Shown: positions 6,672 through 62,300, counted from the whole stretch's first letter. The stretch: DNA of 63,227 nt, filler included, from Rhizaria sp. SCN 62-66 (GCA_001724265.1; 11 parts of 11 records of this genome joined end to end with filler, not necessarily neighbours in it), one strand, 5' to 3'. The notes: generated by a model from the sequence alone, not told the origin. Translations and numbers: made by a program.

Positions 6672-8240
6672 CACGGGTCGCGCACAGTCGCGCACATCGC
6701 TTTTCGTGTCGTTAACCGCACGAATAGGACTACGCTTGTTCATGTACAATACAATCTTGTTGTGGAGGTCGGCAATGCCGCTTAAATACAGACGGCTCAT
6801 GGCAACCACTTCGCCGCTCATCATCTTGCGGATTGCATCTTCAACAGCGCCAGCAACAATCCATACCTCGTCGCTAGAGTCGTCAAGCACAAGTCTGTGC
6901 AAATTCCTGCCACACGGAGCAGAAACCGCATTACACGGAGCACCTGTTATTGTTTTGGTGTAGTACGCGTCTAGGAGCGGAGGCACAGTCTCAGAAACAT
7001 CCGCAGACCCGAACATGCGTGTGGTTAATAGCTTCATCGGAATGATGGGCGCCTCGTCGAGCAATACGGGTTTGATCTGAGGATACGCGGCCACGATCTG
7101 CGCTAAAATTGCAGGTTTGCGTCCTGCAAGAGCGCGCTGCAGCAGGTTACTGAAATTATTTTGCCTGCTCTCCAGAACAAGGGAGCATAGCAGCTCGCCA
7201 CCCGATTGCCAGAGCATCGGTGAGTTCGAGAGTTCCGCGCTGCGCTGCCCCACATGCTCGATAAACTTCAGCGCGAGCTCAAAGCAGCGAAAGCAGCCGC
7301 CAAACGCAGCAGACATCAGCAGATCCAGCTGCAGGTTGCGGCTGCGTAAAGCGATCGCGATCGGCGCGGCCGCGCCTGAAGTCACATCGGCCGCAGCATT
7401 CCCGGTGTCGTCGCTGTTGCTGTTCGTGAGGAATGCAACCATATCGGCGTTGCCGTTGTTCGCTGCGGCAATAAGCGGAGAAAACAGCTGTACGCGCATC
7501 GCTTGCGAATCTAAAGGAAAGCTGTAGCCGCAAGGGCCTGCGTGGGTTTGCATAAACTTTTCCATGGAAGTTTGATTGAAAAAACTCGCACTTAAGAACT
7601 CGGCCGGGTCCAGGCCCCACGGAGGAGCGATCATTTCAACCAGCGTCGTACTAAGCCCGCGGGAAGCGTATTCCCCGAATGAGTCACGAATTTGCAAGTT
7701 CATAGCTGCCCACTGCGTCGGCGTCGAGGATGTATACAGCGCGCGCGCACAGGCGACGCGGTTCAGCAGCGCAGCTAACATGAGCGCAGTCGAGTTCGAG
7801 TTCCTAATGTGCTCAGTAACGTCAGCACCAGTCTAAAGTAGCGCCATAACAACGCGCGGGAGGTCAAGATGTACTGCAGCCGTGAGCGGAGACGATCCAC
7901 GATTCGCGGGGACGTTTACGCGCTCGTAAAATGTGTTCAGGAGCAGGGGGGAGCGGTCGCTCAGGGCTAAGGTGTCATTGATGTACACGGCGTAAAACTC
8001 TGGCTACAACAGAGCACGCGCTGCAGCCATGTTAAATAGAACCTCGTCTTCAATGCTAGCTTTGCTGGAGTCAACATCATCATCCTCTGCATCTGCTGTT
8101 GCCGTTGTTGTTGTGTCAGAAGTTGCAGACGCTGCGAGTTGCTCTATAAGGCGCACGAGTGCAGCTGGCTTGCAAAAGGATTCCGTTAGCGCAAGTGTCT
8201 CCAGGTAGGAAACCGCACGGCCATTTATGATACGTTGCAT
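6672..8240 (-). CDS. Ankyrin-repeat protein, 3' partial, read through two in-frame TAG (8004-8006, 7833-7835)
   Basis: ORFs 8004..8240 and 6624..7781 share a frame. The gap translates GSSPLTAAVHLDLPRVVMALL*TGADVTEHIRNSNSTALMLAALLNRVACARAL, i.e. ankyrin repeats. A further repeat SPLIAAANNGNADMVAFL follows. Confidence 0.85.
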
Positions 8241-8951
8241 TTTCGGCTTTTTGTGATTTCTGTCACTGATTTGGGCTTGATAAGACGTCTGTCAGAGAGA
8301 GTATCCAAAGAAGCTGTTGGGGATAAGTTTAATGAGTGATACCGCATGATCAAAATATTTTTTGTCGGGTTAGCTAATATGGTTTTAATTAACAGTTAAT
8401 TTAAACCTATATTTTGGTGTTAGAAAGACGAAAGGCAGAAAATCTATGGTGTTGTATGCCAAACAAGAAATGCAACGACACTCCTCCAAACTCCACCACC
8501 AACACACCACCACCAACACAAATCTGTCAGCATTGATTGCCACCAGAAAATCAGCATTCTCATTCACAACACGTCACGACTGCGACATTTGAGCAATATA
8601 TAAAAGCAGTATTATAACGTCACTATAATATCAATGTTCATTTATAAATATTGAATTTGTCATCATGTCATCTATCATTGCCAGTCTAGCTTATGTTCAT
8701 GGGTTCCCACGCATGCGTCACTAGCTTGTAATCCCTTGATGCACATCATGCAGCGGGTTGCCGTCAAGGTTCAAGCTCCTATTCATTGTTGTCACGTGAA
8801 TAATGTCGCAACATGACATTGATCGGCTGAGGCCTCAATAATCTATCTCGCCTGCTTCGCTGTCACGATGCAACAAAACAGTTTTGCGCGTACGTCCTGC
8901 GCAAACTGGCCCATTGAGCAGTGTGTTATCTAGATAGAATAAAGAAGTCGC

Positions 8952-10977
8952 TCAGAACGACACAGCGTCACGCTCGCCCCAGTCGAGTCCGCTGCGCACG
9001 CCGAGCCTCGTTGCCAATGCTGCGCATAGCGAAAGTTACAGTGTTTAGCAACGAGATAGTATGTTAAAAGAAAGTCGAGTACAAGTGTTAAAAGTGAGGT
9101 TGATTACATAATCACAGCAAAGTCGTCAAAGTCAGAAATTATATTGTTGCAGCGACATCTCGTAAAACGTACCGGTAAAGCGCGCGCGCGCGTGCAGCAG
9201 CCTGTCCGAGAGCGCGGGGTCCTGCGGCGCCCACAGCGGCGTCCCCAACACTGCGGCAACCAGGTGGAAGCACAGCTGCGGCGTGGAACAAAGACATAAA
9301 ACAAAGAAGAACAAAAAAAAGACATATAGGTTGCGTTAGAGTCTACGAGACATGTCAACTTGAATAAAACAACAATCTAAGATGTGAACTTTGATGAAAC
9401 ATATGGCGTACCTGTGTGATCTTATGCTTCGCCGCAGCCGACTTGACTTCCCTCTCGCCGACACTCGCAGCCTTGCCGACCGTGTTGGAAGCAGCAATCA
9501 CAGTGGTATCGTCCTCCACAACGGTGTCAGTCTTCGTAACAAAGACAGGTGTCTTCTTGCCAGCCACAGCAGCCCCCGCATCAGCCTCAACCTCAGGCGC
9601 GGCAGTCGCAGCCGAGGCAGAGGCAGAAGATGAGGCAGCGGCAGACGCGAGCGCGCGCGCCTTGGCCTTGGCGCGCATACGCTCTGCAAACGTCATCTTC
9701 CCAGCGCCTGCGTTCGCAGCAGAAACCGTGGCGGTGTTGGCGGCAGCGTTGGTGCTCGCGGCGGCGTCTGCTTCGTCGTCGCCGTCGGCGGTCACGCCCG
9801 TACCCGCACCTGCACCGGCACCGGCGCCGGCAGCGGTCGATGAGGCTGTGGTGGGGGCGGCGGTGCTCTTGCTGCTGTTGCGCCGGGGGCCAGCAGCAGC
9901 CGGCCCCACCGCTTCGCCGTCGCCGTCGCCGTCGCCGTCATCAAAGTCACCAGGGTCCACAGCACTCGTTCTAGCGCTCACTCTCGCAGCGGCAGTGGCA
10001 GTAACCGAGGGCAGCGCCAAGTGCGGCGTGGGCGGCAGGTAACGCGCGCGCAGGGCCGCCACCTCGGCGCCCAGCAAGCCCGCCAGCGCCGCCGCGGCCT
10101 GCGGAAACGCCGGATGCTCGCCGCTGCCAAGCGCTAGAGCACTACCACTGCCAATACTGCTGTTGCTGCTGCTGTGGGTGATGACATGGCTGTTAGTGTC
10201 GGTCTCGATCGCCTCGACCGGCTCGGGGCCCGCGACAGCAACAGGGGCCACGGCTGAGGCCGTCACCGCAGCGGCACCAGTGGCAGCCGGAGCAGAGGCA
10301 GAAGCAGAAGCAGGGGCAGGGGCAGTGGAAGCGTTGGCGCGCGCGGCGGCGACGTCAATGGCGCGGGGCAGCGGGCGCGGCAGCGGGGCGCCGGTGGCCG
10401 CGTCTGCGCTCGCAGCAGCGAGGCCGGCCGCCACGGTCATGGGCGCAGTCGGCAAGCTCGCACCGGCATTAACAGCCGCAGCAGTCGCAGCGGGAGCAGT
10501 CGCAGTCGCGGCGGGGGGAAGATTGCCGGTGTTCTGAAGCCAGGTGAGCGCAAAACCAAGGTAGAAACCGAGCTCATCGGCAGCGGAGCGTCCGTACTGC
10601 TCGCCCTGTGTGTGAATGTGGTGAGACGCAAGCGAAGTGCAACAAAAAGATGAACCAGTGATGGAAGTAGCAGCGCATCATAAAGAAGGGTGAAAAAAAG
10701 ATATACAGTAGAATGACGCTTCTTTCCGACAAGTCTTTGGACGTACGAGCTTGTACCCGTCGGCGCGGCCCTTCTCGAGCCCGGCCACGAGGCCATCGCG
10801 GCGGCTGGCCGCCAGCAGGCGCTCCTCCAGCATCACCACAGAGTCAAATATATCATCCGTTGACTCTGAAGACGAAAAAATGGCGCGTACAGCGTCGGGC
10901 ACGACGCGAGGGGGCGTGTGTGGACGCGAAGACGGCGCGCTGTCGCCGCCATCGTCGCCCCAAACATCGTTCATCAT
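8952..10977 (-). CDS. LTO1: LTO1/ORAOV1 homolog (Fe-S adaptor for Rli1/ABCE1). Four exons: 10977-10747, 10605-9412, 9275-9173, 9019-8952. About 531 aa with a large Ala-rich insert
   Basis: DIFDSVVMLEERL followed by the GX3 repeat GLVAGLEKGRADGYKL|GEQYGRSAADELGFYLGFALTW. C-terminal PQDPALSDRLLHARARF...VSF-TGA parallels ORAOV1. Three GTACG...CAG introns preserve the frame. Confidence 0.85.
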
Positions 10978-12159: not shown

Positions 12160-12232
12160 GTCTAGTTGGCTCAGTTGGTAGAGCGTGGGTCTCATAATCC
12201 CAAGGTCGCGGGTTCGATCCCCGCATTGGACA
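12160..12232 (+). tRNA. tRNA-Met (CAT), elongator type
   Basis: Cloverleaf: acceptor GTCTAGT/ATTGGAC, D-arm GCTC..GAGC, anticodon loop CTCATAA with U31-U39, T-arm GCGGG-TTCGATC-CCCGC. A T-run follows. Confidence 0.96.
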
Positions 12233-12234
12233 TA

Positions 12235-12241
12235 TTTTTTT
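12235..12241 (+). terminator. RNA polymerase III oligo-T terminator
   Basis: T7 run immediately after the tRNA. Confidence 0.8.
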
Positions 12242-18632: not shown

Positions 18633-21600
18633 GTCGACACGACCTACCCTCTGCTACTTGACGCCACGCCGCCCGTGTCGTTCCGCTCGCTCGCGCGCGC
18701 AATGCTCCCAATCACAACTGATCCTGCGCTGCCGAATATCCCGATCCTTGACTTCGACGGCACCGCGTTCGCATTCAACTTGCTCATCTGGTTCTGCACC
18801 AAGCCGCTGCGGCCCGACGCGCAGTTTTATCTCTACACGCGCGGCGTTAATGGGGCTGCACCACTTTTCACTGCTGCTGTGCCGCAGGTCTCTGAGGACG
18901 TGAGTCAAGGCGGATTCGAGTACACGTTTCATGTTGGCTCACATACTGGTTTTATCTTACTGCAGCGCTCCAATGCAGAGTGCGAGATTCACGACGAAAA
19001 TGGAATCCTAACCTATGTTTCTGACACAATGCCCACAGTTCAGCCCATGATGGACGTCCTTGCGGACATGCTCGACCGGCGCGTGCGCCTCACCGTCAAT
19101 CCCACCGGTGTGCTACCGTTCATCAGCAAGGACGACGCGTTCAAACTCACGTTCTCGGCTAGCATGTCTGCGACCGGCTGTGTGTCTTAGCATGCAGTTG
19201 TCACAGCGGCTTCGGCCAATGTGGTTTCGTTTGTTCCCACGCTTACGCACTCCACAGCGCGCGCCATCGAGGTTATCTGCAATTTCCCCCACGATGCCTT
19301 CTCGCCCGTGCTCACTATCACTTCGCTTAACGGCATTACTGTCGCGGTCGCGTACACGATTGGCACAGTCTCAACCTCTCTTGTGCGCTTCTACTCCGCG
19401 CCTCTGCTGGCCGCCGTGCCGCACGCTCTTACCGATGCCAACGCTGTTGCCGCAGGCTTAACCGCATTTGCGCTGCCCGAGTCCATGCAGGGCGCCAATG
19501 TTACCTACTCTGGCTACAGCGCAACGCGTGAGTTACACAGGCTTGCGCACTTTGGCTATGTGCACGCCAACGGCAGTATCACAACTGCGCGCGCCCACCT
19601 GAGCGTGTCTGGCGACCGGTCGACGATGGAGCTTATTGTTCCTGCTACCGCAACTGGCGTTGTGTTGTTCCGTCGCCGTATCGTTGACGCATATCTTGTG
19701 CCTACAACTGGTCCCGCACTGGATCTGCGTCGAGCGCCTATTCAGCCGTTAGCGGCTCGTGTTACGCTTGGCACAAGTAGTGGCACCATGGTGCCCGGAA
19801 ATGCTCACTTTGGTTACTTCATGACCGGCGATATTGTCGAAATTAGCACGTTCAATGCTGACCCTAACATCGTCGCAATGGGTAAGTATGGCACATATAC
19901 CGCCGCGTACAGCAACGGCATGCTGTCTCTCGCTGCAAAATATGGCACTGACATTGGCTTGGTAAACTCCCAGGTTAACATCACGTCCCTTGACTCTGGT
20001 TTTAGTTACGCTGCTGGACAAACGCCCAAGATGTTGCTCAGGCGGGAGGACGATGTCGCTGTAGACTTTGTTATTATCAACCACGGCGTTGAGCGGGCTG
20101 ACGGCTCTTACTATTCCACACACTTCACGCCTATGTACATTGCACCCGGTCCTGCGCCAGTGCTGCGCTACTTCTCCTGGCTTGAGAACCTTCCAGTTGT
20201 TCCGCTGCCACGCGAGCAAACATCAGCTGCCTTGGCCCAGTCTTTCGTGGCAGCCTCTCCTGTTGTTGCTTCGCGCGCCTCCGCGTTGGCGCGGGCTGCT
20301 GCTGTGGCTGCAGCGTATGAAAACTCCCCAGTTCTGCTTGCGGGCGGTGACAGTGTCGTTACGCTCCGCTGCTCTGCGCTATTGAACGCTGTTGGCGTTG
20401 TTGCGGCTGATACACGGAGTCTCTCTGTTGTCGAGCTTAAGCAGTGGGGCACGCGCATTAACGGCGGCACTTTCCTGTTCCACACACTCATCGTCGGCAA
20501 CGCTGCTGGTCTTGTGTTCTTTGCGCGCTCAAGGACGATTGCGTGTGACATTCTTACAGAGGATGCAACTGCAGCGCTTGTGTCGCTGGCGCCGTTGCCG
20601 TTTGTTCCGGTGTACGCTGATGTCGCAATCACCGAGACCCGCGCTGTGGCAGCTCCGGCCGACGCTGCCGGCACAGTGGCCACGGACCAGTTGCTCACGA
20701 TCACGCCGCGCGGCCGGTACGGCTTTCTGGACTCCGGTGACGTGTTCACAATCGGCGCCTTTACGGGTCTTGCACAGGCTTCCTTTGCACTCAACGTCAC
20801 TGCAGTCACCGCGAGCATTAACGCCGCTGTGGGCACGGTCACGCTCGCGATTGCAGATCTCCCTGGCCAGTCGCCGGTCGGCGTCGCGCTGCGCGCTCTG
20901 CTGCGCGGTGGCGTCGCTGTCGAGAACTCCGACAGCATCGCGGTCACGGTTACCAGCGCGGGCGGGTTGGTGTTTGGCCCCGTGCTGCAGAGCTCGCCTG
21001 CGGGCCCGCTTGCGCTCACAGTAACGACGCTGCTGGAGACCGAGGTTGGGATGCTTCCGGGCACCGACAGCGTTGGCGGCTGGACTGTTTCCTACGCGCT
21101 CGATTCCACGGTCAAGGGCAGCTACCCGCTTGTGAGCTTCATCTTCCAGGCCAAGTCCGTGGCAAGCTTGCGTTCCGATCTTGCACGCGTAAGATACTCT
21201 TTCCCAACCGGTGATATCGACGCGCTACTGCGCTTTGACGGCCGCGACGCGCCTGTCTACTGTGAGGGCGCGCGCGCGGTATGCACTGTAGATTCCGTTG
21301 CGGCCACGGTCACGATCGAGGCCCCCGTAGATGCTGCAGCCGCGTTTACCGTGAGGCTCTACGGTGCTCGTCTGCATGGCAGCAAGTACACAGTCACTGC
21401 TGATGCTGTCGCGGCAGGCGTGCTTATGTCATCGCTGCAACTTCCCGCGGTGGATAATACTGTGGAGCTGATGGCGCTTGATCTTGACACAGTTAGCTTC
21501 CATGTGCCTGTGTATCGCATTCCCGAAACCGCAGCACTGCACGCAAGCACGCTCGCTGTGCTCTGCCCCGCTGGCGACCTGACGCACGCCGCGCTTGTGC

Positions 21601-24600
21601 TGGCCGACGGCACTTTAGCGCTGCAACGGCTCACGACTGACGTCGCCGTGTTTGAGGACATGTTCCCGGGCTCTGGTGTCTCCGTCGCGCTGATCGACTT
21701 TGCCACGGCGCGGAGTGTCGCGCTTTTCACGCACGAAAACCGCCGCTGCACTGCGCGGTTTATCCGCAACGACAACGCGTTTGCGACCGAGATGTCCGGG
21801 CTTTACAGCTTTGCGTTTGACGCCGTGCCGCACCGCACCGCCGCAGCCATCACCGTTTCCAACAACAACGGCAACGGCGACGCTGCACTGCGCGTCGTCA
21901 TTGCGCCGCAGACCGAGCTCGGCTTCTTTAGCGCCGGCGACGAACTGACGCTGTCTCACGGCATTGCCACCGCGTTTAACAACGGCGTTGAGTGCTCTGT
22001 GTCGCTCCCGGGCGTCGCTGCGCGCGCCTCGGCCGCCGGTGTTACCGTCGCAGTCGAGGAGACCACCGTGCCCGGCGAAGTTATCGGGGTCACCTGCAAC
22101 GGCGTGGACGTTTCCCCCGCCGCGCCCGCCGGACTGCGCGCAGTGTTTGCCTCTGCGACAGCAGCGGAGGCGCGGTTTGGCGTTCGCGGCGGCGAGAAGT
22201 CGCTCTTTACGCTTAACACCGACGGACTGGCCGCGGTCGCCGCGGGGCCCGTGCCGCTGCCTGCGACGGCGATCACGCTGTCGCTCGCGACGCCTTACGC
22301 TGACAGCGAGAGTGAGTTCTCCCTGAACATCGCTGCTGGTGGCGCTGATCTCCCTGTCGGCGCGGTGATCGCAGTCGAGTTCCCGCACGACTATGCGCCT
22401 CTTCTCAGCACCGGCGCCGCGACAGTCCCGTGCTCCGCTGCAGACGGCGCCGCCGAGCTCAGCCTCACAATTACGGCCGCGGGGCTCTCGCTTACAATCG
22501 TCTCCGGTGTCGCTCACGGCGCTGCTGAGAACGTAATCACGTGCGGCTCTGTGCGCACTGCACCGGGGCCCTCCGTTGGCACTAATTCTGCTGCGGCCGC
22601 CGCGATTGTGACTGCCGCGTCAGTGTCGCTGCCGTCGAGCGAGGGTCAACTGGTGCAGCGCTTTACTGTGGCGAACATTGCGCTGCCCGCGCTTTCTCTG
22701 CTGCCCGACGCTGTCGAGCTTGCTGCCGCCAAGCTTGCACCGGCCATTGGCAACGTCTTTGCTGCCGGCGCTACGGGACAGGCTATGTTCGTGACTCTGC
22801 CCGCGCTGCCCATCGCGCTGCCCGCCGGCGCCAAGGTCATTGTCACTGCGGTACTGCTCCGTGGCACCGCCTCCGACGATGGCATTGACTGTGCTGTTAT
22901 CGGCGACTTTGCGGCCGCTTTCCCGGCTGCGACCGTCGATGCGGCCGCCGGCAAGGTCTCTGCAACTGCTATTGCTGCAGTCGCTGTCTCTGCCCAGGCT
23001 GTTGTTTTCCGTTGCAAGAATGTCAGTATCCCCAAGAAGTTCGCCGCTGCCTCCGCTGCTGCTGGCTCCTTTGTGATCACCGCGACGGCGTCGCTGGCCC
23101 CGCGCCAGTACGTCCTGGCCAAGGGCGCTGTCTCCGCCGCCGCCATTCGCGGCTCCGGCCCCGTCAGCTCCTCTTTCTCGGCGGCCGCTGTCGGCGAGAT
23201 TGGCAAGATGAAGTTCCTCTTCTCAGACATGGCTGTGTTCAACTACAAGTCCTGGCTCTGGGGCTCGCTGTTTGACGGCTACAAGATCGAGAAGCTGCCC
23301 AACATGGAGCTCGAGTTCGAGGTTGCGCTGCCCGCGACTGTCAAGCCCGTAGCGTCCGGCTTTAGCTGCGTCATGGACCCTTACTCCATCCAGCTCCCTG
23401 GCGTCACAGTCTCCCTTGCCTCTGTCAACGTTGCGGCCAGCACCTTCCGCTTCAAGACCGTCGGCCCCATTGACGGCGACGGTCTCGCTGTTGTCTGTGC
23501 CAACCTTGTTGCTGCCGCCTCCGCGCCTCACGTCGTCGCCCCCGTTGTAACCGCCTACGTCGCCAGCGTTGCTGAGCCTATCTTCCAGGCTGTCCACTCT
23601 GGCCGCGCTCCCTACCCCCCCTTCGTCCCCGTCGGTGCTGCCGAGGTCGCTGCGTCGTTTGCGCCCGTTGGCCTCGTTGCTTCCGCGTCCCGCTTCTCGC
23701 TTGTCTTCACCATGCCCAAGTACCTTGCCCTCGAACAGGGCTCCGTCGTCTCCGTCACGCTCGGCCCCTCCGCCGCCGTCTCCGTCGCGGGCGCCGTCAC
23801 GTGCTCGCTCGGTGCCACCGCGTACAACGCCGAGCAGCGCGCGCTTACCGTCATCGTCGCCAAGACCACCGCTGCCAACGCTGCTGTTGCGCTTACGTGC
23901 GATGGCTTCGTCAACAACGAGTCCGAGGTCGATGCTAATGTTGTCGGCAACACCGCGACTGTCCGCGTCCTGACCGCCGCCGGAAACGTCGTTGTTGACG
24001 CCGTCGCCGTGCCCTTCGGCGCTGTTACTGCTGCCCGCTTCACTGCACAGGTCTCTGCCGGCGCACCGCTGCAGGCTAGCGACATTGACCCCAAGCTGGA
24101 GGCTCTCAGGGCGTACTACGTTGAGGGCTACAAGCCGCGCACTGTTGTCACCGCGCCTGAGGACGCCGTCACCATCACGCTCGGCAGCCTTGCGCGCGTC
24201 ATCACCGCTGCGGACGAGGTTCACATCACGCTGCCCGCTGCCTTCGAGTACTCGCACACCAACGCGAGCGCTACAACGCGACCCTGCCTCTGCCCGACGC
24301 CGACGTTATCGCCTCTGCTCGTGTCGCCAAGACCGCCGCGCAGGGCACGCAGCTCCAGCGTTGTCTGCGTCGGCATCACTCGCCCCGTCGGCGTCACCAC
24401 GTCCACGGTCACCAACGCCACTGTCTACACCAGCCAGCACGCCGTCATCGCCCGCTCGTCTTCCGTCATCCTCGCTGCCGTCGGCGTCCCCTCGATCGGC
24501 ACCGAGTACGCTTACCTGATGCCCGACCTTACCGTTGCCGGTGAGTCCACCACCACTGCGTATACGCTCTCGCTCGCGCCCCTCAGCGTCGCCATCCCAG

Positions 24601-24707
24601 CCGGCGCCGTCGTCTACTTCCGTCTGCCTGCTGTCATTACTGCGGGCTCTGACGTCAAGTGCCAGGCGCTCAAGTGGAACAAGAAGGTGTCCGCTCTCAC
24701 CGTGTCC
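18633..24707 (+). CDS. Very large (>2000 aa) Ala/Val/Thr-rich protein built from repeated beta-rich Cys-pair modules, probably a surface protein. Partial at both ends, one in-frame TAG at 19188-19190
   Basis: ORFs 18675..19190 and 19221..24755 share a frame and are joined as GCVS*HAVVTAASANVVSF. Recurrent module xLPxGxx(I/V)x(V/L)xLP..C..T(I/V)..TC. Confidence 0.8.
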
Positions 24708-31885: not shown

Positions 31886-31925
<40 letters not shown>

Positions 31926-41294: not shown

Positions 41295-41897
41295 GGAACG
41301 CCATGACCTTTTAGGGAGAGCCGTGTGGAGGGTCCAAAGAGAGAGTTGACAGAGGTGGCAGGAGTTCGATGTGATAACAATGAGCTTAGAAAGAGAATTA
41401 CAAATCGTACGAATATATGCACTTAATACACTATGAAGCTTAATATCATCCCCGGTGACGATCACTAAATGTGTATTTGTCTTGGTCGGAATCAGTCTTG
41501 AGTGGGCCTTGCTCAAGCCCAGGTTTGCCTCACGATTTTGCGGGCAATGGAAGTGCCTGCACGAATCCGCATGTGACGGCAACGTAATCTCGTGATATTT
41601 CTTCTCCTGCATTCAGGCATTGCGTAGAATCTGTTGTGCTAACCTCATCGTAAACGGATGAGTCAAACCTGGCCTTAACCTACTGTTGCTTGCTTCTGCA
41701 GTGATGTCCGGGGCCGTCATCGAAAAGTGCACCTAGTGTACTATGGCAACACTACATTGACAAATGTAACGACATATATTATAGACTTGTTAGTTGTNNN
41801 NNNNNNNNNNNNNNNNNNNNNNNNNNNNNNNNNNNNNNNNNTTAATTAATTAANNNNNNNNNNNNNNNNNNNNNNNNNNNNNNNNNNNNNNNNNNNN

Positions 41898-43299: not shown

Positions 43300-43569
43300 C
43301 GCGGGGTTTGCAGTTTGCACCGATTTGCATTGCACTGGCAATGCAAGTCAATCGGCGGCCTGCAACGACCGCCCAGACCTGTTCGTGCTACCGGGCCCGC
43401 GCCGGTCAACGCCTTCCCCTTTCCGCGTGCCTCTTCCTTTTCCTCTTACCACGTGCTTCTTCCTTTTCCTCTTTCCACGTGTGTCGTTCTAGTGTTTCTA
43501 TTGGCCCTTTCGGGCATGTATATAAAGGGCCATGCGGCCCGAATAAACTCGTCTTTCCCCAGTGTCACA
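43284..43569 (+). repeat. LTR (286 bp)
   Basis: Terminal inverted repeat TGTGACA...TGTCACA. TATATAAA at 43519 and AATAAA at 43542. Flanked by PPT and PBS. Confidence 0.9.
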
Positions 43570-43570
43570 T

Positions 43571-43588
43571 TGGCGTCGCCTGCAGGAT
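43571..43588 (+). promoter_or_regulatory. Primer-binding site, probably tRNA-Ser
   Basis: TGGCGTCGCCTGCAGGAT complements a tRNA 3' end ATCCTGC-AGGCGAC-G-CCA (G73 discriminator and CCTGC T-stem, as in tRNA-Ser). Confidence 0.7.
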
Positions 43589-43676
43589 CCACTCCATCAT
43601 AGTGGTGACTAGGTCGGGACGGTTGACAGGCGAAGACCTCGACTCGGACAGGCGCAGCCCCGAGGTCGACCGAGCG

Positions 43677-46600: not shown

Positions 46601-46959
46601 GGCGGTCACCCGCAGCGCCGCGCGCACTGCGAGCGCCGCGCCCTCTCAGCCCGCGCGATCAGCTGCCCCGCCTGTACTGCCAGTCGACGTGGCGCCGGCT
46701 GTGCCCGAGACGCAAGCGCGCGCCGACGCGTTTCCGACGGACATTGCCGCCGCCCAGCGCGCCGATGAGCGCCTGCGCCCCCTGATTGCGTACTTTGAGG
46801 CGGGCACTCTGCCGACCGCGCCCGGCGAAGCGCGCAGACTGGTCGAGAAGGCGGCCAAGTATGCGCTGCAGCGCGGCTGTCTCGTCTTTTTGCCGAACGG
46901 GCCGCGCCTTGTGCTGCCGCCGCCGCTGCAACGCTGGGCGCTGGAGCGCCATCACGATG
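43677..46959 (+). mobile_element. Ty3/gypsy single-ORF gag-pol (Gag, CCHC, PR, RT, RH, start of integrase)
   Basis: CHACGQVGHMARDC, ALVDTGA, RFCVDYR, MPFGLCNAPATFQR, YLDD, TDAS..ERECLA..TDH..ADALSR, ERHHD at the contig end. Confidence 0.97.
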
Positions 46960-47059: not shown

Positions 47060-49101
47060 GTCCGGGAACGCAACAGCGACACGCACACCCCACTTTGCAC
47101 CCGTAGACGCTGTCACCATTGCCTGCGCGTCCGTCAACTGTGCAAGGACAACAGCAGCGGTGCGCTTATCGACATCTGTAACCAGCATTGTCGCAACAAG
47201 ACCAGAGTTGTCAGTGTTGTCATCGTCGGACTGAGCTCCTCCGCTGCTCTTGCCGTCAATACCGCGCAGCACTGAGAAGGTGGCACGGACAGTGCCAAAC
47301 TCGCAGGTGTTTCCACTGTCATCGACGCCACAGTCAACTGAATTAGCAGTCGCCGTGGTCTTCTCGCCAGTTTCCTTTGTTTTGATTTGATTGCCAATGC
47401 CATCTTCAACGTCGTCGCTGTCGTCAGTCTCAATCAGTTCGGCGACGGCCTTGGCGCGTGATCCGCAGGCGTCGTAGCTTGCAGCAAGGCTTGTTGACAT
47501 AATAGTCGCCGTAACTTCACCGACAAGCGCACATCGGCACAGGGGCAAAGCTGTCGCAGAAGTTGTAGGACTTGAGCCTGCGTCTGCGTTTGCACTGGAC
47601 GGTGTGCCTTCAACAGATGCGCCCGCAACGGCTCCATCTTCGCTATCTTGCAGTTGTGCCTGTTGAGACATTAGCAACGTGGAAGCACCGCAGCCGCAGC
47701 CGCGACGCACAGTGCACGTGAAACGCACGCCGCACAGCTCAACCGTGCCGATCTCAGCAAAGAAGCCGTCGCCGTTAGATGCAGAGAGCAAGTCGGCGAG
47801 TGGCACATCAGCTTTGCACGTGACCTCGCGCGGCAGTAACCCAGCAGTCGCATCGGTGGTCGCTGCCTCAAACGCAGCACGTGCAGCAGCCCAGGGCGTG
47901 TCAGCAAGTGTATTCATAATCACCTGTTCGTTTGGTTCGCTGCCATTTAGGTCTGCGCTGACGGATGCACTAGCGGTCGCACTTGTAAAAGGCCAGACAG
48001 GCCGTGACGCCAGGAGCCGACCGAGACGTGTAATACTTGGCGCATCGGTGGCGCCAGTCATGCTCGCAAGTGTATTTTGCGTCCGCGCTAGAACATCCAG
48101 TTCTTGCTTGGTGCGCTGTGACAGAAAGAGCCGCAGTTGCTTTGCCAACGCTGACAGGGGAGCACGTGCGTGGGATGCATACTGCGCAGTTGTCGTCGAG
48201 AGTGCCCTCAGTTTGGCCTCAGTCTGCGTGTGTAAGGCTTCAGTTAGCGCAGTCTCGTCCTTAAGTTGCTGCGCCAGTGTGGCAATGCGGGGAGTAAGAG
48301 TGGCGGCGTGAGAGCGAAGCTCAGCATGCTTGGCTGTAACACTGCGAATGGTGTGATCTTTATGTTCACCGTTGATTAGTGCGCAGTGGCTGCATACGAC
48401 GTTGACACAAGTGTCGCACCAGTATAGCATAAGCACGGGCTCGTCATGTTTGTAGCACCACTAACCCGTATAAAACAAGTATGAGTATGAATCATAGAAG
48501 GTAATATGAGTGAGGGTCAATTAAAACAGCAAGTTTCTGCATCGAAGAGATCTCAAATCCGAGGTTCAGTTGAAAGCACTTAATGATAATCTCTTTCCGA
48601 AAAGCACGTATAGAATACAACACCTTGATGTTGTCGCTGTATGATGTCGGCATCCATGCTGTTAAGACGTACACTCGGGTCGCGGTGCGCGGACTGGTCG
48701 AGAACAGAGACAGCAACAACATTTGCAGCACTACCATCGCCGCCACGGCTGTTGCCGTTGCCTGGCGGAGTGTGATCATGATGAGCGGACGAGACGACCT
48801 TGTCTTGCAGTTTACTTTCGGCCTGTGGCAGGAGAAGTGGTGAAGCAACATCAATGTTTAGCAGTTAGTGAGCTTTGCATCAATTGAGAGGCAGTTGCTG
48901 TCTATTTGATGCAATGATATTGAAGCTTGACAGTCAGTTGATACAGAGGAAGGAGACTTGCAAAATATTGAGAGCGAGCACGAGGAGTCGTAACATTGCA
49001 GTTACCTTAAAGCAAGCTTGACAAAGACTTGGGGGGCGACCTTTGCCTGCGAACTGAATTGTTTTGCCACATGCATTGCAGTTCGACACTCGTAATGTCA
49101 T
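47060..49101 (-). CDS. B-box plus coiled-coil protein with an N-terminal CxxC..CxxC motif. Exons 49101-49006, 48822-48673, 48460-<47060; 3' partial
   Basis: MTLRVSNCNACGK..LCQACFK|AESK..RDPS|WCYKHDEP..YWCDTCVNVVCSHCALINGEHKDH. Phase-0 introns GTAACT..CTAAC..CAG and GTACGT..TAG. Confidence 0.8.
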
Positions 49102-51773: not shown

Positions 51774-51811
<38 letters not shown>

Positions 51812-52094: not shown

Positions 52095-52194
52095 NNNNNN
52101 NNNNNNNNNNNNNNNNNNNNNNNNNNNNNNNNNNNNNNTTAATTAATTAANNNNNNNNNNNNNNNNNNNNNNNNNNNNNNNNNNNNNNNNNNNN

Positions 52195-55100
52195 GGCACA
52201 AGTCTACGACCCGGCACGCGGCCCGAACATGCTTACTGGCACTGCATTTGACGAGCCTGTATCGTATGAGTACTTCTTTGACTCGCTTCCAGTCGTGCTG
52301 CGGCTTGAGTGGTCGTTACCTGCACTCCGAACAGACAATGCCACTGTGACTCTGGATTACTCAGACATTGGCCCGTGCTTCTTTGATGGAGACACGGCAA
52401 AGACCAGTATTACAAAGGACGTGCTCATGACGGACTCCGCAACGGGTTCCCTTGAGTTCCTCTTTGCGTGCTCTGTAATGCGGTCATCGGAGGTACTTGA
52501 GACACGCATCACGATTGGCAATGTTACGGGTGAGACATGGCGGGTGCAAAGGCTGCGTTTCATAGGCCGCACCACGCTTACTGCGACGACACACGAGGGC
52601 ACACTTGATCTCGTCAATCCCTCCTTGATTGTTGAGTTTCCACTCTACGACGTAACGCCGTTGCACTTTGTCTTTTCGCCGGCACTGCCTGCTGATGCCA
52701 TGTTAGAACTATCGTTTACTAACCCAACCGCAGAGTGTATCTTTGTTGATTTTAACGCTGAGTCCGGTTCTGTTGCGATTGCTGCAAATGCTGCTGGCCA
52801 CACAATTGACGTCAAGTGCAGCTTCCCTGCATCTGAGCCACCTCAGGTTATTGCGATGTTTGCAGCAGGATCCAACGTCTACTACCAAGACTTCCAATCG
52901 TCAGCTTTGCAGACAAAGGGTGACCTTGTGTTTACTATCAATGACACTCCAATTGATACGCATTTGAGCTTTGTTGCCGGTCAAATCTACACAATTGTTG
53001 CTCAATTCGTTCCAACACCTAAGGCCACGCAGACTGTGACTACAACACAGCTTACAGTTCCTGCAGACTGCGTGTTTCAGCTGCGCGGTGTTGGGCTTTA
53101 CGTGCGCGAGTCTGTGTTTGTACAAAACAATGTTTATGAGAATTTCACGGCCAATATGATGTGTCGCCGCACCCATAGCATCGGCTCACACGTCGTAATT
53201 GACAGTAACGCTTACAAGGGCTCGTCTATTGGCCCTGTGCCAGTGTACGGTTTGATGGCCTTTGACTATGTGATGCCAGCAAACATTGTCGGAGTAGATC
53301 GAGAGATTACAGATTTGGACTCTCGTAACAAGTTTGAGCTGATGTGATTCCTTCCGTTCTCACGATGACAACAGTGCGTGTAAGTTTCACCAGCACGACG
53401 GGTATGTGCGGTTTTACGATCTACTCTACCACTGGTGTTCCTACCTTTACTTACACTGTGAGTGTACTGTTTGTTCTTGGAGACGCTGTCCAAACAATCT
53501 ACCCTTCTTGCAGCTATACGACCGCGTCACCTGTGATGATGCTTGCTGAGGTCGCTTCAGGAAACCTTCATCTACCCGTGTTATCAGTGCCTCTGCACGT
53601 ACGTGGCTCTGTCATTTTCTCCACAGAGCAAATTGACTCAACTCTCGCTTTCACAGGTGAGATTGTTGCCAATCGAGACTGGGTCTTTACTGTTTCTCTT
53701 TCGCCCTACGCTGCTGAAGTCACTACTTTTGCCGTCGATGTTTTGGCTGACTCTCTGACAGGCCCGCAGCCCACGTGTGCATTCCGTCTTCTTTCTGAGA
53801 CGGTGGCCTTTGAGAATCTCACTTATGGTGCATTTGAGTTTACGTTTGATGCCACAACGCTTGCTATCGATATTGCCGTCAGCTGCTCAGTTGAAACCGA
53901 ACTAAACCCAGCCGTAGTGTTTATCACCAACGACAAAGACACGTGGTACGACGTGTTCCGCAGCGCACCCTTCCGCGTCCGCGGCGCGGTCTGGATCGAA
54001 GACTCTTTGGTAGCCCGAGCAGTGGCCTTTCCACTTCTCACCACGCCTACAACGTTAGAGCGTGTCGCCGTCAAGCGTGTTCACAGTGTGCGCATCCGCC
54101 TAATGCCTGCACCGACACATGAGGCTGCATTTGACATCACATCGTCAACAGCTGACTGCACACTCGCACCCGCTGACGTTGCAGACACTGCGCTGTTTAC
54201 AGACAGCATGACTATCAGCGTTGCTGCGAGCACCTCCGAGGTTTTTGTCGCGATTTTTTGCAACGTCACGAATCCATACGTACAACTCACTATTGTTAGC
54301 GGTGCGGCAACATTCTTCGGGCAGTTTACCACTGCACCATTTGCCGTTGAGAACCGCTTTAACATCCCCATAATGCCCGAGGCGATCCACGTTCAGGAGC
54401 CGGAATTGCTGACTGTTTCATTTCTTCCAACAGACGCTGTTGATGGCGCTGGCCGCTCTGTCCGTGTTGCAATCACCGTTGATTCCAGCTACACAAATTG
54501 CTTTGGTGCTCCGTTAAACACAGTNNNNNNNNNNNNNNNNNNNNNNNNNNNNNNNACTTTTGGTTTAAGTGTATGACATTCACGCATCCACACAACGGCG
54601 GGCTGGTAGAGGGTGCTATGGTACCGCGTATTTTAATCAAACGCATCTCGGGCATTGCCTTTATGTCCTTTACCTCAGACCCAGTCCGCATTACGCTTAT
54701 TGACTGCAAGCTTCTCGCAGCTATTGTGCGCGGTGGTGTAACCTACCAAGATAACGGCTTCGGTCTTACCAACTACAAAGCAGAAGCCTCTGTCGGTTGT
54801 GATGCGGGATATGCACTCATTGCTTCAGACAACACAAATAAGACGTGTGTTGTCAATGGCGCCACTTCACCACCAGTGACAACATGTATTCAACGCTTGA
54901 CATGTCTTGCCACTGGTTGGTCCGCGCCACCGCCCACCTGCGAAGTATTTAACTGCGGCCCTGTGCCGGCGCGATATCCGATGTTTGGCACTGAACCTGT
55001 GCAAACGGAGTTCGCACCCGAAGGCAACGCAACATCGTTCGGCGCACGCTACACGTACGGCTGCGTTGACGGGTTTGTACTTGCAGGGTCTGCAGAAATC

Positions 55101-58058
55101 TCATGTACGGCCGGTGGATGGAGCTTGCAAATTGCACCCACATGTGCCGCCATTGAATGCCCTATTTTGGTAACTGCCAACAATGTTGGCAACATCACCT
55201 ATTCGGCGTTACCATATGGTGCGCGCAAATTTCAGTCAGTTGCCACGCATGAGTGTCTTCCACTGCATATTCGGACTGAAGGTGATGAGAAACGCGTTTG
55301 CCAGGCAGACCGGTCTTGGTCTGGCGCAGCCCCAATCTGCCGTTCGAACACGTGCGTGCGCATCTATCACGAGCCAGCCACAATGAAGGCCATTGTCTTT
55401 TCGCGTCTCGGTAGTGTTGTAACGCATGATCCCGTCTCAAACACCTTTTTGGTAGACACCATCGCTTCGTACGAGTGCGCTGAAGGTTATATTTGGGACA
55501 AGGACACGACTTTTACAACGCGCCAGTGTATGATGTCTGACGGATGGCAACCTGTTGACGCCCCCCGCTGTGTTCCGCAGCCGTGCCCAACGCTGTCAAC
55601 TGTTGATCTCGGCGCTGTTACTCAGATGCCATCGCAGCTTATGAATATGTACGGCGTTACTGCCACGTTTTCCTGTGAATATGGCGCTGTCCTGAGTCAT
55701 TCTGATCCTCAGATTAGCTGCACAGCAACTGGTGATTGGTCTGGACCTGCGCGCACATGCTCTCCGTATAACTGTGGCACCCCGGGTAATATTCCCTTTG
55801 CACAAGTAAGTATCGCCAGTAATGGCACACACGGCCGGCTGGGTATCTATCTCAACACATCTACGGTTGAGTACCGTTGCAACGTTGGATATAATCTGCG
55901 TTACACGGGATATAACCTCACCGATGGCACTGGTTACGTTGTCCAGTTCACTCAGCAAAATGCTCTCGTGCTTGGTGCGCGTCGCGAGTGCACGCCACGC
56001 GGCTGGATTCCGCTTACATTGCCAGTCTGCGACGTCAACCAATGCGAGTCATTACAGCTCCCGATGAACGCAGCGAACATTGCCTTTGAGGACACCTTGA
56101 GCACGAGCAATAACGGCCTTATCGCGCGCTCATACGGTACAACAGCGACATACGTATGCAAGTCCGGATACGAGCCGCGTGATCCACTCACCGATACCGT
56201 TACTTCATCGAAGCGCCGCTGCGGGACTCTTGCTGAAGGTTGGATTCCAGCCGTTGCGCCCATGTGTGGTGCAATTGACTGCGGTCTTCCTGATAAAGGC
56301 AATGTAGTGGCCTATAGCGAGACGATCGAGTTCGAGTACGATGATCTTATTGTAGCTGGTCCGACGCGTTATCAATCTACGGCTGTGTACCGCTGTCAAT
56401 CGGGCTTCACGCTTTCCTCGGGCGATGATCACTACGAACGCACATGCACGGCCTCATCTCAGTGGTTGCCAGCGGCGCCAACGTGCGTCGATGTTGATGA
56501 ATGTAATCCGAGCACATTTAACGGTAAATTCTTTGTTGACTGCGCTACCCTCTACGGACCGCATTCTCGCTGCATCAATACGTTTGGCTCCTACGTCTGC
56601 ACACCCCACGTGACGCTCGACATAATCCCTGAGTCCGTTGCGACACCCGATGGTACTGTCAACTACAACCCTGAGACCCACGAGATTATCCCCAATAACG
56701 CCCGTGGAAACCAAATTGTCTTGTTTACACTCAATGCCGGTGCAAACATTGTTGCTCCGTACGTCTCTCGTGTTCAGTACGTCAACACAAATGCCACTCT
56801 GTACCCGAGTTCCGATCTCGCTACTTACGACTGCATAGACGTTGTCGTAACGCCCGTCATAATCCAAGACACGACGAAGTACTTTCGAGTACAGTGTACT
56901 CTGAGCGCAGGCCAAGGTGCTGACCTCTACGTGCGCATGCAGTATTGTATCCAACCTGACTCTGTAACAAACTATGCAGGTGATATCGACTGTTCGCGAT
57001 GGAACTGGGCTTGGGACGGAACTTCGGCATTTACAGAGCTTGCAACACGCGGCTCTAACTACGACGTCCGCATTTCCTATCCCTTGCACGCGTTCATTCC
57101 ATCATCGTTGCATGCTGTCACGGCTATGGGACCTGGTCAGCGCACGAATGACTACGTCAGCATTACGAGTCTTGGTGAAGATATCGGTTTTGACATCGAA
57201 AATCTGTTCATGGATCGTGCTGGACTTGTCCGTATGATGTACGGCGCAGGGAGTAACACAAACGACTACCCGCACGAGTGTACCTTCAATCAGGAGCTCT
57301 CTCTTATGAACAGTCCCAATCAGCGCACAATTATCTGTCATACTAAAGACGCTGTCAATGAGATTGACCTCAAGTTTAAGCTTATCATCGCACATCGTGC
57401 CGCTTACTCAACCGATATGTATTCATATCCACAGGTACCCTCCGTTTCATCCGTATTTGGCTGCCCGATAGATGATATTCTCACTGGCATCACTTCAGGC
57501 TGCCCCACTGACGGCGGAGCCGTACGACTCACAATTAGTGGTACCGGCTTCTTAGAGCCGCTCCAAGCCATGGTGAGTGGGCGCCAATGCTTGTCGCTCA
57601 TTCGCGAAAGCAATCTCCGATTCACCTGTCTGCTGCCTGTTGGGTCCGGCTCTGGATTGTCACTAATTGTCAAAGCTGGTTCACAGCGATTTGAATCTCG
57701 TGGACGCGTCAACTACGCCATTCCGACCATCACTGAAATTCTCGGCTGTCAGCCTAGCACCAGCCTGAGCATCCGCGAGTGCAACCGCTACGGCGGCGAT
57801 AGGATCATGCTGCGCGGCGACAACTTTGGTGTGTCAGGGGCATCCGTCTCGATTGGTGGCCTTACTTGCAATAACGTCATGCACACAGCCTCCAATCCTC
57901 ATCGTGAGTTGATGTGCACTACACCTCCCGATGCAACAGTTGATCGCGCTGTTACGGTATTACAGCGCTACGGCGAGTTATCGCAAGATATTGTCTTATT
58001 GTCGTACGTACAGTGTCCACCAGGTCAGCATAATGATGATGTTAAGTGCGTGCTATGC
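52195..58058 (+). CDS. Large extracellular protein: beta-rich N-region, multiple Sushi/CCP domains, Ca-binding EGF, IPT/TIG domains. Partial, with a frameshift near 53340 and a 31-N gap at 54525-54555
   Basis: Repeated Y.C..G(Y/F)..C...W....P.C Sushi motifs. CVDVDEC..C.NTFGSYVC cbEGF. GG..LTISGTGF and GG..IMLRGDNFG..VSIGG..C IPT motifs. Confidence 0.88.
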
Positions 58059-58158
58059 NNNNNNNNNNNNNNNNNNNNNNNNNNNNNNNNNNNNNNNNNN
58101 NNTTAATTAATTAANNNNNNNNNNNNNNNNNNNNNNNNNNNNNNNNNNNNNNNNNNNN

Positions 58159-58941: not shown

Positions 58942-59306
58942 GTTCGTTGGCCTGCAGAGGATAGTGGATATCAAGACAAAGGAAGAGTGAAATCAGTAAG
59001 TAAAATAACGCCGTAATAGAAGTATGTAGTTCGTAGCTGGTGGTGGCATTCTATAGCTACTTGATGTGTCCCTGTCGCGAACGCGCTCTTAAAAGATTCG
59101 GTGCCATCGGTCAACAAGAAAACGGTTTTTTCTCCCGACCATTGGGAAGCCGTTTCTGACCACCTTAGAAATATGGTTCTCGGCATCAAGAATCCGTTTC
59201 TTAGAATCAAGCCTTTCTTAAATTGTAGTTTTTTTAGTTTTTCACCTAATATTTTCACCATTTTCTTGATCATGTTGTTCTTGTTCTTGTATTCGCAGCG
59301 CTCGTT

Positions 59307-62300
59307 ATGTACAGCGGCGCTTGGAACCAGTTCACAGACCCGTCAGCAGACTCGTCGTCCTCTTCGACGGGGCTAGGGCCAAATCCGACTGCAGATGAGC
59401 TCGCGCCGAACTTGCTTGTGCGTGCTGCGCAGGACAACGTGAGCGACATCTCAATGCACCCGAACGCGGCCTCACTCTTCGTCCGCCCAGCTGTCGTGTA
59501 CAAATCATCAGCCTCCTCTGCCGCCGCCTCTGCAGCGCCCCCGCGGCCCACCACGGCTGCTGCAGCTGCTGCCGCTGCGGCTCCACATGCCTCAGTCAGA
59601 ACCCCTGCTGATGGTGCCGACCCATTTTCCAACTTTGACATCTTCAGCGACATTTCCTCCGCCTTGGCCAACGGGTCCGCCGCTGGCCAGACACAGCAGC
59701 AGCCTGCTGTCTCCGCGACCGCTGCGCCTATCGTGCCACCCTCGCCCTCCGCAGTGCTGTTTGGCGTTGCGCACGGCCCGGCGCCAACGTCTGCGCACTA
59801 CTTGGCCTCTCTGCATGCGCACGCAGGCCTCACAACAGCCACGTCTTCATCCTCCTCCTCTTCGTCAAGCCCTGCTTCCGCAACTGCTGCTACTTCCTCG
59901 GCTTCGGCTTCGACTTCGTCGCCACCCTCCGCGTCCGGCGCGCCCCAGGGCCGTCCCCGCGGATCTGCGCCGCCGCACCCGCACTCGCTGTCAATGGCGG
60001 CGTCCGCGTCCGTCTCGGCCTCCGCGTCGGCGGCCGCGTCGCTGCCGCCGCTGCCGCCGAGCGTGAGCGACGACCCGTCGGTGGCCGCACTTATCGACCG
60101 GCTCTTTGCCGCGCTTGCGACCACGAACTCGGCCGCGGCGGCGCCGGCCCCGGCGGGTGGCGTGGAGGACGCCAAAGGCAGGGGAAACGGCAAAGAGAAG
60201 AGCAAGAGCAAGGACAAGAGCGGCGCCGACGACGACACTGACGGCGACGATGGCGAGGATGGCGACGACGATGACGCTGGTGGCGTGTTCTTGACCGCCG
60301 TTGCCGCCGACCCCGCTGCCGCTTCCGCCGCCACGGCTTCCGCAACCGCCGAGACTGCGGCCCCCAGCAGTACAGCGCTCGTGCCCGTGGCAGACGCTGA
60401 CGCTGACGCAGACGCCGAGGCCGACGCTGCTGCAGCAGGAGCTGCCGCTGAGGAGCCAGAGCTTGCGCCTGACGCCGCGCGGGCCGAGCGTCGGGCCCGC
60501 GCGCGCGCGCTGGTGCCGCTGCCGACCCCCGCGGCGGCGGCGCAGCCGTGGCCGCCTGCCGCGGTGGCCGCCGCCGCGCTGCTGCCGCTGGCGGGTCCGC
60601 TGGCGCCCGCGCGGCCCGCGCTCGCGGCGCTGCCCGCGCCCGTGCAGGCGCACCTGGCTGCGCTCGCGGCTGCCGCAGCCGAGTCCGCCGCCGCGCTGGG
60701 CGCGCCCCCGCCCGTCTCGGCGACCGCGGCGGCGGCGGCGGCGGCGAGCTAGAGCGCGGGCGAGGTCCAGGAGCCGGACCGCACGCTGTTCCCGGTGAGC
60801 GCGCCGCTGCCGCTGCCGCTAATGATGGGCCACCTCACGCGCATCGGGCTCTCGTGCCAGTGGCACCGCGGGCTCGCGCGCGGCCCGCCCCCGCTGCCGC
60901 TGCTGCCGCTGCCGCGCGCCGTGCCGCTGCCGGTGTTGGCGCCCGCGGTCGTGGCCGCGCTGCCGTGCGGCGGCGAGGACGAGCGCCGCGCGCTTACGGC
61001 CGCGCTGGCGCAGCCCGCGGCCAAGATGCTTGTGCTGGACCTCTTCTGGTACGCCTTCGCCGTGCTCTTCGGCGCCGAGCCCGAGCCGACGGTGGAGGAG
61101 GACGTCGCGGCCGCCGCGGGGCAGAAGAGCCTCGACGACGGCTACGGCGACTCCGAAACGGACTCGGGCCTCGACGACAACAGTGATGACAACACTAGCG
61201 ACAACGAGGGCAACAATGATGCCAAGACCAACAAGGGCGTCTTTTTCGCCCCGTCACAGATGCCGTCTCAGGCGGCGTCGCAGGCGTCCCGCTCCTCCGC
61301 TGCCAACCGCGGGTCCCGCTCCCGCGCGCTCACGGTAGCGCCCGTGTCGATCGCACTGACGGACGCGGACGTGGCCGCGGCCGCCGTGGCGCGCCGCCGC
61401 CGCCGCGCGCTGCAGCGCCGCCGCGCACGCCGCGCCGCGCAGTCCGCGCACCGCGCCGCCGCCGTCTCCGCGCTGTCTGCTGCGCTGCTGGACCGGCTGG
61501 CGCACTGCCACGTCGCGCTGCTGCTCTCGCTGCCGGGCGCCGAGCGCGACGCCGCACTGCACCACCTGCCCGCCGCGCTGGCGCACCTCACGGCCCTCTC
61601 GCTCGCCGCCGCCGCGCCCGCGCTCGCGGGCGAGTCCGCCACCGCCGCCACCGCCGCCGCCGCGGGCGCCTCGGGCGCGGGCGCGGGCGCGGGCGCGGGC
61701 TCGGGCGCGGGCTCGGGCTCGGACGCGGCTGAGGCGGCCGAGGCGCGCGCGCAGGCGCTGCGACTGGCGCTGCTGCGGTTACTGCAGTCGGGCATGCACG
61801 GCTACGTGCCCGCCGCGGCGGCCAACGCCGAGACCGTGACGCGCTGGCTGTCCGTCTCGCGCCAGTCGCAGCGCGAAACCTCGCTGCTGTCCGTGCTGGG
61901 CCACTCGGACGCCGCGCCTGCAGCGCTCGCGGGGCGGGGCGCCGCGGCGGCCGCGGGTGGCGCCGTGGGCCTCCTGGCCACGCGTCTGTCCGCGCTCGCG
62001 CTCGCTCTCCCCGCCGCGGGCTCCGCCATGGGCGCGGACGGCGCGGAGCACGGCGCCGGCAGCAACGGCTTCGGTGGGTCTGGCGCGATGTCTCACAGCA
62101 CTGCGGCCGCGATCGCCCGGGCCACTGCGAGCGCCAGCAGCAGCAACAACGCTAAGAACAGCACCGGCAGCGGCAACAGTGGCGACAGCGGCAGCGTGGG
62201 CGCCGAGAGCGGGCCGCAGGGCTTCACCTCGTCGCTGCGCGCGCCCGTCACGGAGCACACGCTGCGCTTGCTCGTCGGAAACGACATCGTGCCCTTCGGC

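Follow-up and report, generated by a model that had tools for sequence, protein, structure and literature searches.

Does the uncultured protist whose DNA is analyzed here read UAG as an amino acid while still ending its genes at UAA and UGA? The question is raised by seven in-frame TAG codons in a stretch of 63,227 bases (the window, from whose first base all positions are counted), in which eleven eukaryotic contigs of 5.0-6.6 kb each are joined by ten spacers of the form N44-TTAATTAATTAA-N44 (one of them at 6572-6671). An earlier note on this DNA had placed the TAGs within long reading frames on five of the eleven contigs, and every coordinate and strand that it gave is correct: 7833-7835 and 8004-8006 on contig 2 (minus strand), 19188-19190 on contig 4 (plus), 35333-35335 on contig 6 (minus), 37919-37921 and 38183-38185 on contig 7 (minus) and 60750-60752 on contig 11 (plus). 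The observation is real and is more than a product of chance. That UAG is a sense codon in this organism, with UAA and UGA as stops and the residue left free, is in our judgment very likely; that it is a low-frequency codon for glutamine (Gln), with UAA and UGA still stopping translation as in NCBI translation table 15, is likely.

TAG stands apart from TAA and TGA within coding frames

Reading TAG as sense merges the flanking frames into open reading frames (ORFs) of 540 codons on contig 2, 2,025 on contig 4, 440 on contig 6, 823 on contig 7 and 1,141 on contig 11. Continuity of frame is in itself weak evidence. Across the six frames, 50 stops have at least 100 open codons on each side (21 TGA, 19 TAG and 10 TAA), and because open frames across any stop are common in this GC-rich window, each site needs evidence of its own. 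Frames that appear to cross the N spacers are artefacts of joining; contig 10 also has an internal scaffold gap of 31 N at 54525-54555.

A blind, leave-one-contig-out codon model was applied to the 78 stops with at least 80 open codons per side, a stop passing when its frame was the best of the six on both flanks. Five of 26 TAGs passed, as did one of 42 TGAs and none of 10 TAAs. The five passing TAGs are exactly the noted sites on contigs 4, 6, 7 (both sites) and 11; the two TAGs of contig 2 lie only 56 codons apart and thus fall outside the test. TAG is the rarest of the stop trinucleotides in the window (702, against 917 TAA and 1,688 TGA). It is rare as a codon too: the 9,981 host codons include 7 TAG, 301 CAG and 106 CAA, so that TAG makes up 1.7% of the Gln-type codons. 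The earlier note's remark that TAG is scarce and missing from polyglutamine (polyQ) tracts is borne out by these counts, with no TAG beside the 138 CAG and CAA codons of the second exon on contig 6. Four of the seven TAGs lie within alignable protein sequence, namely both sites on contig 7, the site on contig 4 and the downstream site on contig 2. Support for the remaining three is indirect.

Homologous sequence runs through four of the TAGs

Contig 7 carries a gene for a secreted protein with two in-frame TAGs (36275-38698, minus strand), which opens with an ATG at 38698-38696, encodes an N-terminus resembling a signal peptide and is cut off by the end of the contig. The upstream TAG (site a, 38183-38185) lies in a patch rich in Gln and His, and the downstream one (site b, 37919-37921) three residues past a conserved DSPC motif, within an ungapped alignment. 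P0002, a homologue of 42% identity that itself has a Met and a signal peptide, aligns unbroken to residues 69-465 of the contig-7 protein, both TAGs included. The alignment of a closer protein, P0001 (81% identity over 540 residues, and by a rough estimate from the alignment about 88% to the later part of the contig-7 protein), crosses site b. An ortholog is encoded by L001, which comes from a different collection and is the sole metagenome-contig locus found with this family. At site a the counterpart is CAG in L001 and Gln in P0001 and P0002; at site b it is AAA (Lys) in L001 and P0001, and Ala in P0002. Moreover, a separate in-frame TAG occurs in L001, opposite a CAG of contig 7, and P0001 is evidently an L001-type gene called under the standard code, from the first Met after that TAG. 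All five internal indels between the contig-7 gene and L001 (766-1782) are of whole codons.

The TAGs of contig 7 are identical in DNA contigs of three runs from three studies (X1, X2 and X4), one of which may be the source of the window itself. Contigs of X2 and X4 cover site a at zero differences, and contigs of X1, X2 and X4 do so at site b. Among records of a differing letter, 40 of 256 were considered for contig 7, and minor variants at the TAG sites are possible. As a separate matter, X1 and X2 contigs join across 86 bases of this gene at 37156-37243 (CA..AG, with sides of 26-30 letters); since the junction is seen in runs listed as DNA, it probably marks a paralogue or a related strain, not splicing. 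In genome contigs the contig-7 family returned nothing beyond a chance match, in which L002 (10001-10195, in a bacterial metagenome-assembled genome of Imperialibacter) agrees in the pattern 'LRKPGCISDG' only; it was rejected as a relative.

On contig 4, the TAG at 19188-19190 lies in a fragment of a giant, repeat-rich, surface-type protein (18633-24707, plus strand; 2,025 codons with both ends open), within one of its repeat units, each about 230 residues long. P0004, which came from an exhaustive profile-free search, is a protein of 1,666 amino acids whose final 185 residues are the first 185 of contig 4 with one mismatch, and whose C-terminus falls exactly at the TAG. P0004 represents this gene in a different assembly, truncated there by gene calling under the standard code, and the combined frame spans at least 3,506 open codons with a single TAG. 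In an alignment with five other units, this TAG is 3 residues past the first conserved Cys and about 32 residues ahead of the second conserved Cys and an 'NG' motif; lying between two conserved Cys of a unit, it is therefore in mid-domain. The placement comes from the unit alignment and not from the internal-repeat BLAST, which without composition correction (E 4e-5) was not trusted and with it gives matches that stop near the TAG. P0005 and P0006 are relatives of the contig-4 protein at 35-37% identity; no shorter relatives of its first 520 residues were found, nor was the family found in genome contigs.

Contig 2 encodes an ankyrin-repeat protein (6672-8240, minus strand), with an ATG at 8240-8238 and a frame that runs off the contig end. 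A Pfam Ank_2 match (E 8e-10, residues 124-186) spans the TAG at 7833-7835, which stands in an ankyrin repeat as 'VVMALL-TAG-TGADV'. The public protein P0003, 100% identical to the contig-2 protein, begins in the middle of this repeat, at the first Met after the TAG. The other TAG of this gene (8004-8006) is the weakest of the seven: it lies 78 codons past the start and before the ankyrin repeat, and an AlphaFold model of the N-terminal 313 residues (mean predicted local distance difference test score 35.6) is uninformative on it. The start at 8240 is the only plausible ATG, AT-rich DNA upstream giving way there to coding composition, and the surroundings of the TAG have no intron-like composition. 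No Pfam domains were found in P0002, P0003, P0005 or the second exon of contig 6.

Composition supports the TAGs of contigs 6 and 11

The TAG of contig 6 (35333-35335) lies in an Ala/Ser-rich, low-complexity stretch of an exon (34541-35596, minus strand) whose only ATG, at 35596-35594, is upstream of it. The 291 codons after the TAG contain no ATG, and neither do about the first 330 codons of the frame of the following exon; G+C at third codon positions (GC3) in these ATG-free stretches is 0.72-0.93. Around the TAG the GC content is 0.67 and the T fraction 0.14, unlike introns. The second exon (30962-34309, minus strand) is rich in polyQ, with 109 CAG, 29 CAA and no TAG, and ends at a TGA (30962-30964).

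The TAG of contig 11 (60750-60752) is in a low-complexity ORF with a weak FWWh match, an uncertain start and a TAA end at 62673-62675 (59250-62675, plus strand), and its frame was the best on both flanks by small margins. GC content near it is 0.73-0.9 and the T fraction 0.08, in a window whose noncoding DNA is AT-richer than its coding DNA. The earlier note had described composition as unchanged across the TAGs. This is roughly so, with contig 11 as a mixed case: GC3 of the ORF differs overall (0.73 upstream, 0.91 downstream), and it is steady close to the TAG, being 0.93-0.95 in the 80 codons before it and 0.97-1.0 in the 80 after, in the same phase.

UAA and UGA probably remain stops

The companion claim, that no TAA or TGA bridges frames in this manner, does not stand as worded. 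On the minus strand, TAA 34457-34459 bridges 291 and 1,164 codons, and TGA 10678-10680, the only TGA to pass the codon-model test, joins 102 codons to 440 in a single frame. Both, however, sit within AT-rich canonical GT-AG introns. The TAA is inside the intron of 231 nt that separates the two exons of contig 6 (34310-34540, minus strand; CAG/GTAGGT...polypyrimidine...CAG/G), with a GC content of 0.45 against 0.71 in both exons. The TGA is inside an intron of 141 nt (10606-10746, minus strand; CTC/GTACGT...CACACAG/G), with a GC content of 0.43 against 0.63-0.65 in its exons. The two have T-rich, low-GC bodies and lengths that are multiples of three. A third intron, of about 161-163 nt with a GC content of 0.36 and GTGTTG or GTTGTA as donor, belongs to the B-box gene of contig 9 (48461-48623, minus strand); its acceptor is an in-frame TAG (48461-48463), just before the first B-box zinc ligands. 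The three introns thus range from 0.36 to 0.45 in GC content.

In the window, TAA and TGA join coding-like frames in intronic cases only, and they do so nowhere in 5,411 transposon codons. As had been noted, host genes end in TAA or TGA: of five trusted ends, three are TGA, two TAA and none TAG. The copia ORF likewise ends in TAA, and translation with NCBI table 15 reads the window genes through. The central proposal of the earlier note, UAG as sense with UAA and UGA as stops, is supported by homology or a domain at four TAGs, by the separate TAG in L001 and by the confinement of in-frame TAA and TGA to introns. Such a code would presumably rely on a tRNA with anticodon CUA, derived most simply from tRNA-Gln(CUG), that reads UAG but not UAA, together with a loss or weakening of UAG recognition by eRF1. 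The rarity of TAG might reflect GC-biased codon use or a young reassignment.

Weighing the alternatives

Several results count against a Gln-coding UAG, some of them against any sense meaning. The counterparts of UAG at three ortholog positions are CAG, CAG and AAA, with Gln and Ala in P0002. The TAG column of the other contig-4 units holds V, P, V, A and I, which is uninformative on the encoded residue, and the ankyrin position of TAG 7833-7835, which follows 'LL' and which we take, from the repeat consensus, to be a surface position, has no conserved residue that would identify the amino acid. No tRNA with anticodon CUA was found in the 63-kb window by ARAGORN or Rfam. The count of no TAA or TGA in 9,981 codons is partly circular, since the ORFs were bounded by TAA and TGA, and the lack of TAG at five host gene ends is not significant by itself. 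Directly after the chromodomain of a transposon stands the only candidate TAG terminator in the window (43240-43242, plus strand, behind the integrase-chromodomain ORF of a gypsy-type element), with the next stop, a TGA at 43297-43299, 18 codons on. TAG use is uneven, at 0 of 75 Gln-type codons in contigs 9 and 10 versus 4 of 50 in contigs 2 and 7, which either gene-specific usage or a mixed bin could explain; because contigs 2 and 7 each hold GC-moderate and GC-rich genes, the spread of GC content alone is no proof of mixture. The ratio of nonsynonymous to synonymous substitution (dN/dS, NG86) between contig 7 and L001 is 0.78 overall, with 0.48 for the 167 N-terminal codons ahead of the first TAG and 1.2-1.3 for the 154 that follow, so that it gives no support for purifying selection on residues in the latter stretch; the fast evolution of the protein may reflect diversifying selection on a surface protein. 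Finally, contigs of a polyA metatranscriptome (X5) cover 36627-36780 and 38206-38453 of the contig-7 gene and bridge no TAG, although stretches of the gene without X5 cover carry no evidential weight.

If UAG is a sense codon, it might specify a residue other than Gln, such as Lys, Glu, Leu or Ser. Codes in which UAG is Leu or Ser are on record (PMC11687900), and both the AAA (Lys) codon at one of three ortholog positions, with Ala there in P0002, and the assorted residues of the contig-4 units would suit such a code. We nonetheless think it unlikely, as the other two ortholog positions are CAG, one of them with Gln in all homologues, and Leu appears at none of the three ortholog or five repeat-unit positions, which speaks against UAG = Leu in particular. 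Those two CAG positions and the Gln-rich context are suggestive of Gln, in a number of comparisons that is far too small to settle the residue. Slightly less likely is a standard or dual code in which UAG generally stops and is read through in these genes by a near-cognate tRNA-Gln or context-dependent suppression. Stop codons of dual meaning are known in ciliates (PMC11687900), and the rarity of TAG, its uneven use between contigs and its place at the natural end of a transposon ORF would all be expected of one. The TAGs, however, break essential parts (the middle of a repeat-unit domain, an ankyrin repeat and, 180 codons from its start, a secreted protein over 800 codons long), so that low-efficiency readthrough would yield mostly truncated products, and none of the five host genes with a trusted end stops at TAG.

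Under the standard code, the five genes could instead be pseudogenes or nonsense alleles, which we rate lower again. The contig-7 dN/dS is in part near or above 1, two of the genes hold two TAGs each, and CAG to TAG is the commonest nonsense change: with the host's codon use, a nonsense-mutation spectrum gives TAG a probability of 0.54-0.59, a point that also detracts from the sense reading of UAG. Even so, the 63 kb hold about 12 host genes, and 5 of them would need to have been disrupted, by TAG every time (p = 0.013-0.023 for seven of seven) and never by a frameshift. Against decay also stand the whole-codon indels relative to L001, the TAG at another position in that ortholog, and the very long contig-4 frame, whose TAG recurs in a second assembly with one residue changed. 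Removal or alteration of the TAGs in mRNA, by unrecognized in-frame introns or by editing of the U-to-C type, is very improbable. Host introns do preserve the frame, one TAA and one TGA are concealed in them, TAG 48461-48463 is an intron acceptor, and no RNA contig spans the contig-7 TAGs; yet residue-for-residue alignment across the TAGs, with homologues for contig 7 and between repeat units for contig 4, excludes introns at these sites, and the composition around the TAGs of contigs 6 and 11 (GC 0.67-0.9, T 0.08-0.14), set against T-rich introns of GC 0.36-0.45, makes them unlikely there. By eye, no GT...AG pair of intron size lies within 45 bases on each side of any site. The least credible explanation, to which we give almost no weight, is that unrelated open frames happen to abut at TAG in GC-rich DNA. 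The 50 stops of three kinds with at least 100 open codons on both sides lend it some color, but bridging by chance should favor TGA over TAG by 2.4 to 1, and the site-specific homology, domain and codon-model evidence refutes it for contigs 7 and 4 and for TAG 7833-7835, leaving it conceivable for TAG 8004-8006 only.

The host and other features of the window

The eleven contigs range in GC content from 0.51 to 0.71 and have eukaryotic contents: a long interspersed nuclear element with an Exo_endo_phos domain, a copia polyprotein, a gypsy gag-pol, and proteins with Sushi and TIG domains, B-boxes and ankyrin repeats. Contig 7 is matched by contigs of bioreactor, wastewater and activated-sludge metagenomes, with a share of 0.60-0.68 in four runs of three studies, and other assemblies carry contigs of the host of up to 95 kb. 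The 63-kb window has no rRNA or marker gene. Leads from the ESM Atlas were all below threshold (TIG at 0.76; clusters at 0.89, in which one or two members are labelled Perkinsozoa or Ciliophora) and were not used for taxonomy. In the literature searched, no such code was linked to a protist from wastewater, which means little without a host name. Compared with viral contigs, the gypsy and copia proteins gave no matches.

A tRNA-Met(CAU) gene at 12160-12232 (plus strand) is confirmed by Rfam. A tRNA-Ser(GCU) call at 31651-31738 (plus), made by ARAGORN only and unseen by Rfam, is probably false; it falls within the polyQ-rich second exon of contig 6. A secreted protein with a signal peptide, a TAA end and a weak Carb_bind match (E 8e-4) is encoded at 25265-26539 (minus strand), where tandem repeats of 39-120 nt (25848-26391, minus) encode units of the type QQLQGG(V/I)KS with 52 CAG and no TAG. 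On contig 8, the integrase-chromodomain end of one gypsy-type element (41899-43299, plus strand) is followed by the gag-pol of another (43194-46958, plus). In each of the three DNA runs, the summed contig depth between 39975 and 41797 is 4-10 times that of the neighboring gene, and this stretch also has RNA contigs; an ORF at 40776-41306 (plus) is, judged by eye, a candidate transposase of the pogo/Tc5-type DDE kind. The contig-10 protein with four Sushi and two TIG domains (52196-58058, plus) is spread over three frames, and its gene has a frame break near 53340 without intron-like composition.

Relation to known genetic codes

UAG as Gln with UAA and UGA as stops, as we propose here, is described for the fornicate Iotanema spirale (PMC5304391; PMC9161772), whose eRF1 has an altered GTS stop-recognition motif (PMC9161772), and also for the ciliates Protocruzia tuzeti, Hartmannula sinica and Trochilia petrani (PMC11687900). 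The earlier note's list of precedents is out of date in that codes reassigning UAG only are also reported from several ciliates and a green alga (PMC11687900). Since table 15 has already been described in Iotanema and ciliates, the code of the window is probably of a known kind, while its carrier may be new. Kinship of the host to Iotanema is possible. More tentatively, and with somewhat less than even confidence, we propose that the window records an independent, young capture of UAG for Gln in an unsampled, non-ciliate, GC-rich protist lineage, widespread in wastewater and bioreactor communities, caught when UAG had gone from gene ends and yet made up less than 2% of Gln codons. If so, codon capture as a route under GC pressure could be tested on a natural case.

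Few codes part UAG from UAA, and every further carrier allows stop-codon capture to be tested independently; this one, if confirmed, would bear on whether a rare codon is reassigned once it has disappeared (codon capture) or by way of an ambiguous stage. There are practical consequences as well. Standard-code gene callers have already split genes of this host in public protein sets (P0001, P0003 and P0004 are cut at TAG), and eukaryotic bins of wastewater metagenomes may need a check of their code.

As in the known carriers of table 15, only UAG occurs in frame, opposite CAG at two of three ortholog positions, and UAA and UGA end the window genes. GC content in the window is 51-71%, its transposable elements are of the LINE, copia and gypsy kinds, and its GT-AG introns measure 141-231 nt. 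These traits set it apart from the macronuclear DNA of ciliates, and a GC-rich, transposon-bearing and TAG-sparse carrier, if that is what the window represents, would contrast with the ciliate cases. Its TAG use, 7 in 9,981 codons, is also far below the 'widespread usage' reported in ciliates (PMC11687900). UAG is translated as Leu by the sainouroid rhizarian exLh and by uncultivated phyllopharyngean ciliates, and as Ser by Scotinosphaera (PMC5304391; PMC11687900). The code proposed here shares with all of these the decoupling of UAG from UAA and the prediction of a tRNA with anticodon CUA; it differs in that the positions aligned to the window TAGs show no Leu or Ser. Joint reassignment of UAA and UAG to Gln (table 6) is found in many ciliates, hexamitin diplomonads, Ulvophyceae, Streblomastix and Amoeboaphelidium. 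With these codes the one proposed for the window shares the reassignment of a stop to Gln, and it departs from them as to TAA, which in the window is in frame only within an intron and which ends two of the five host genes and the copia ORF.

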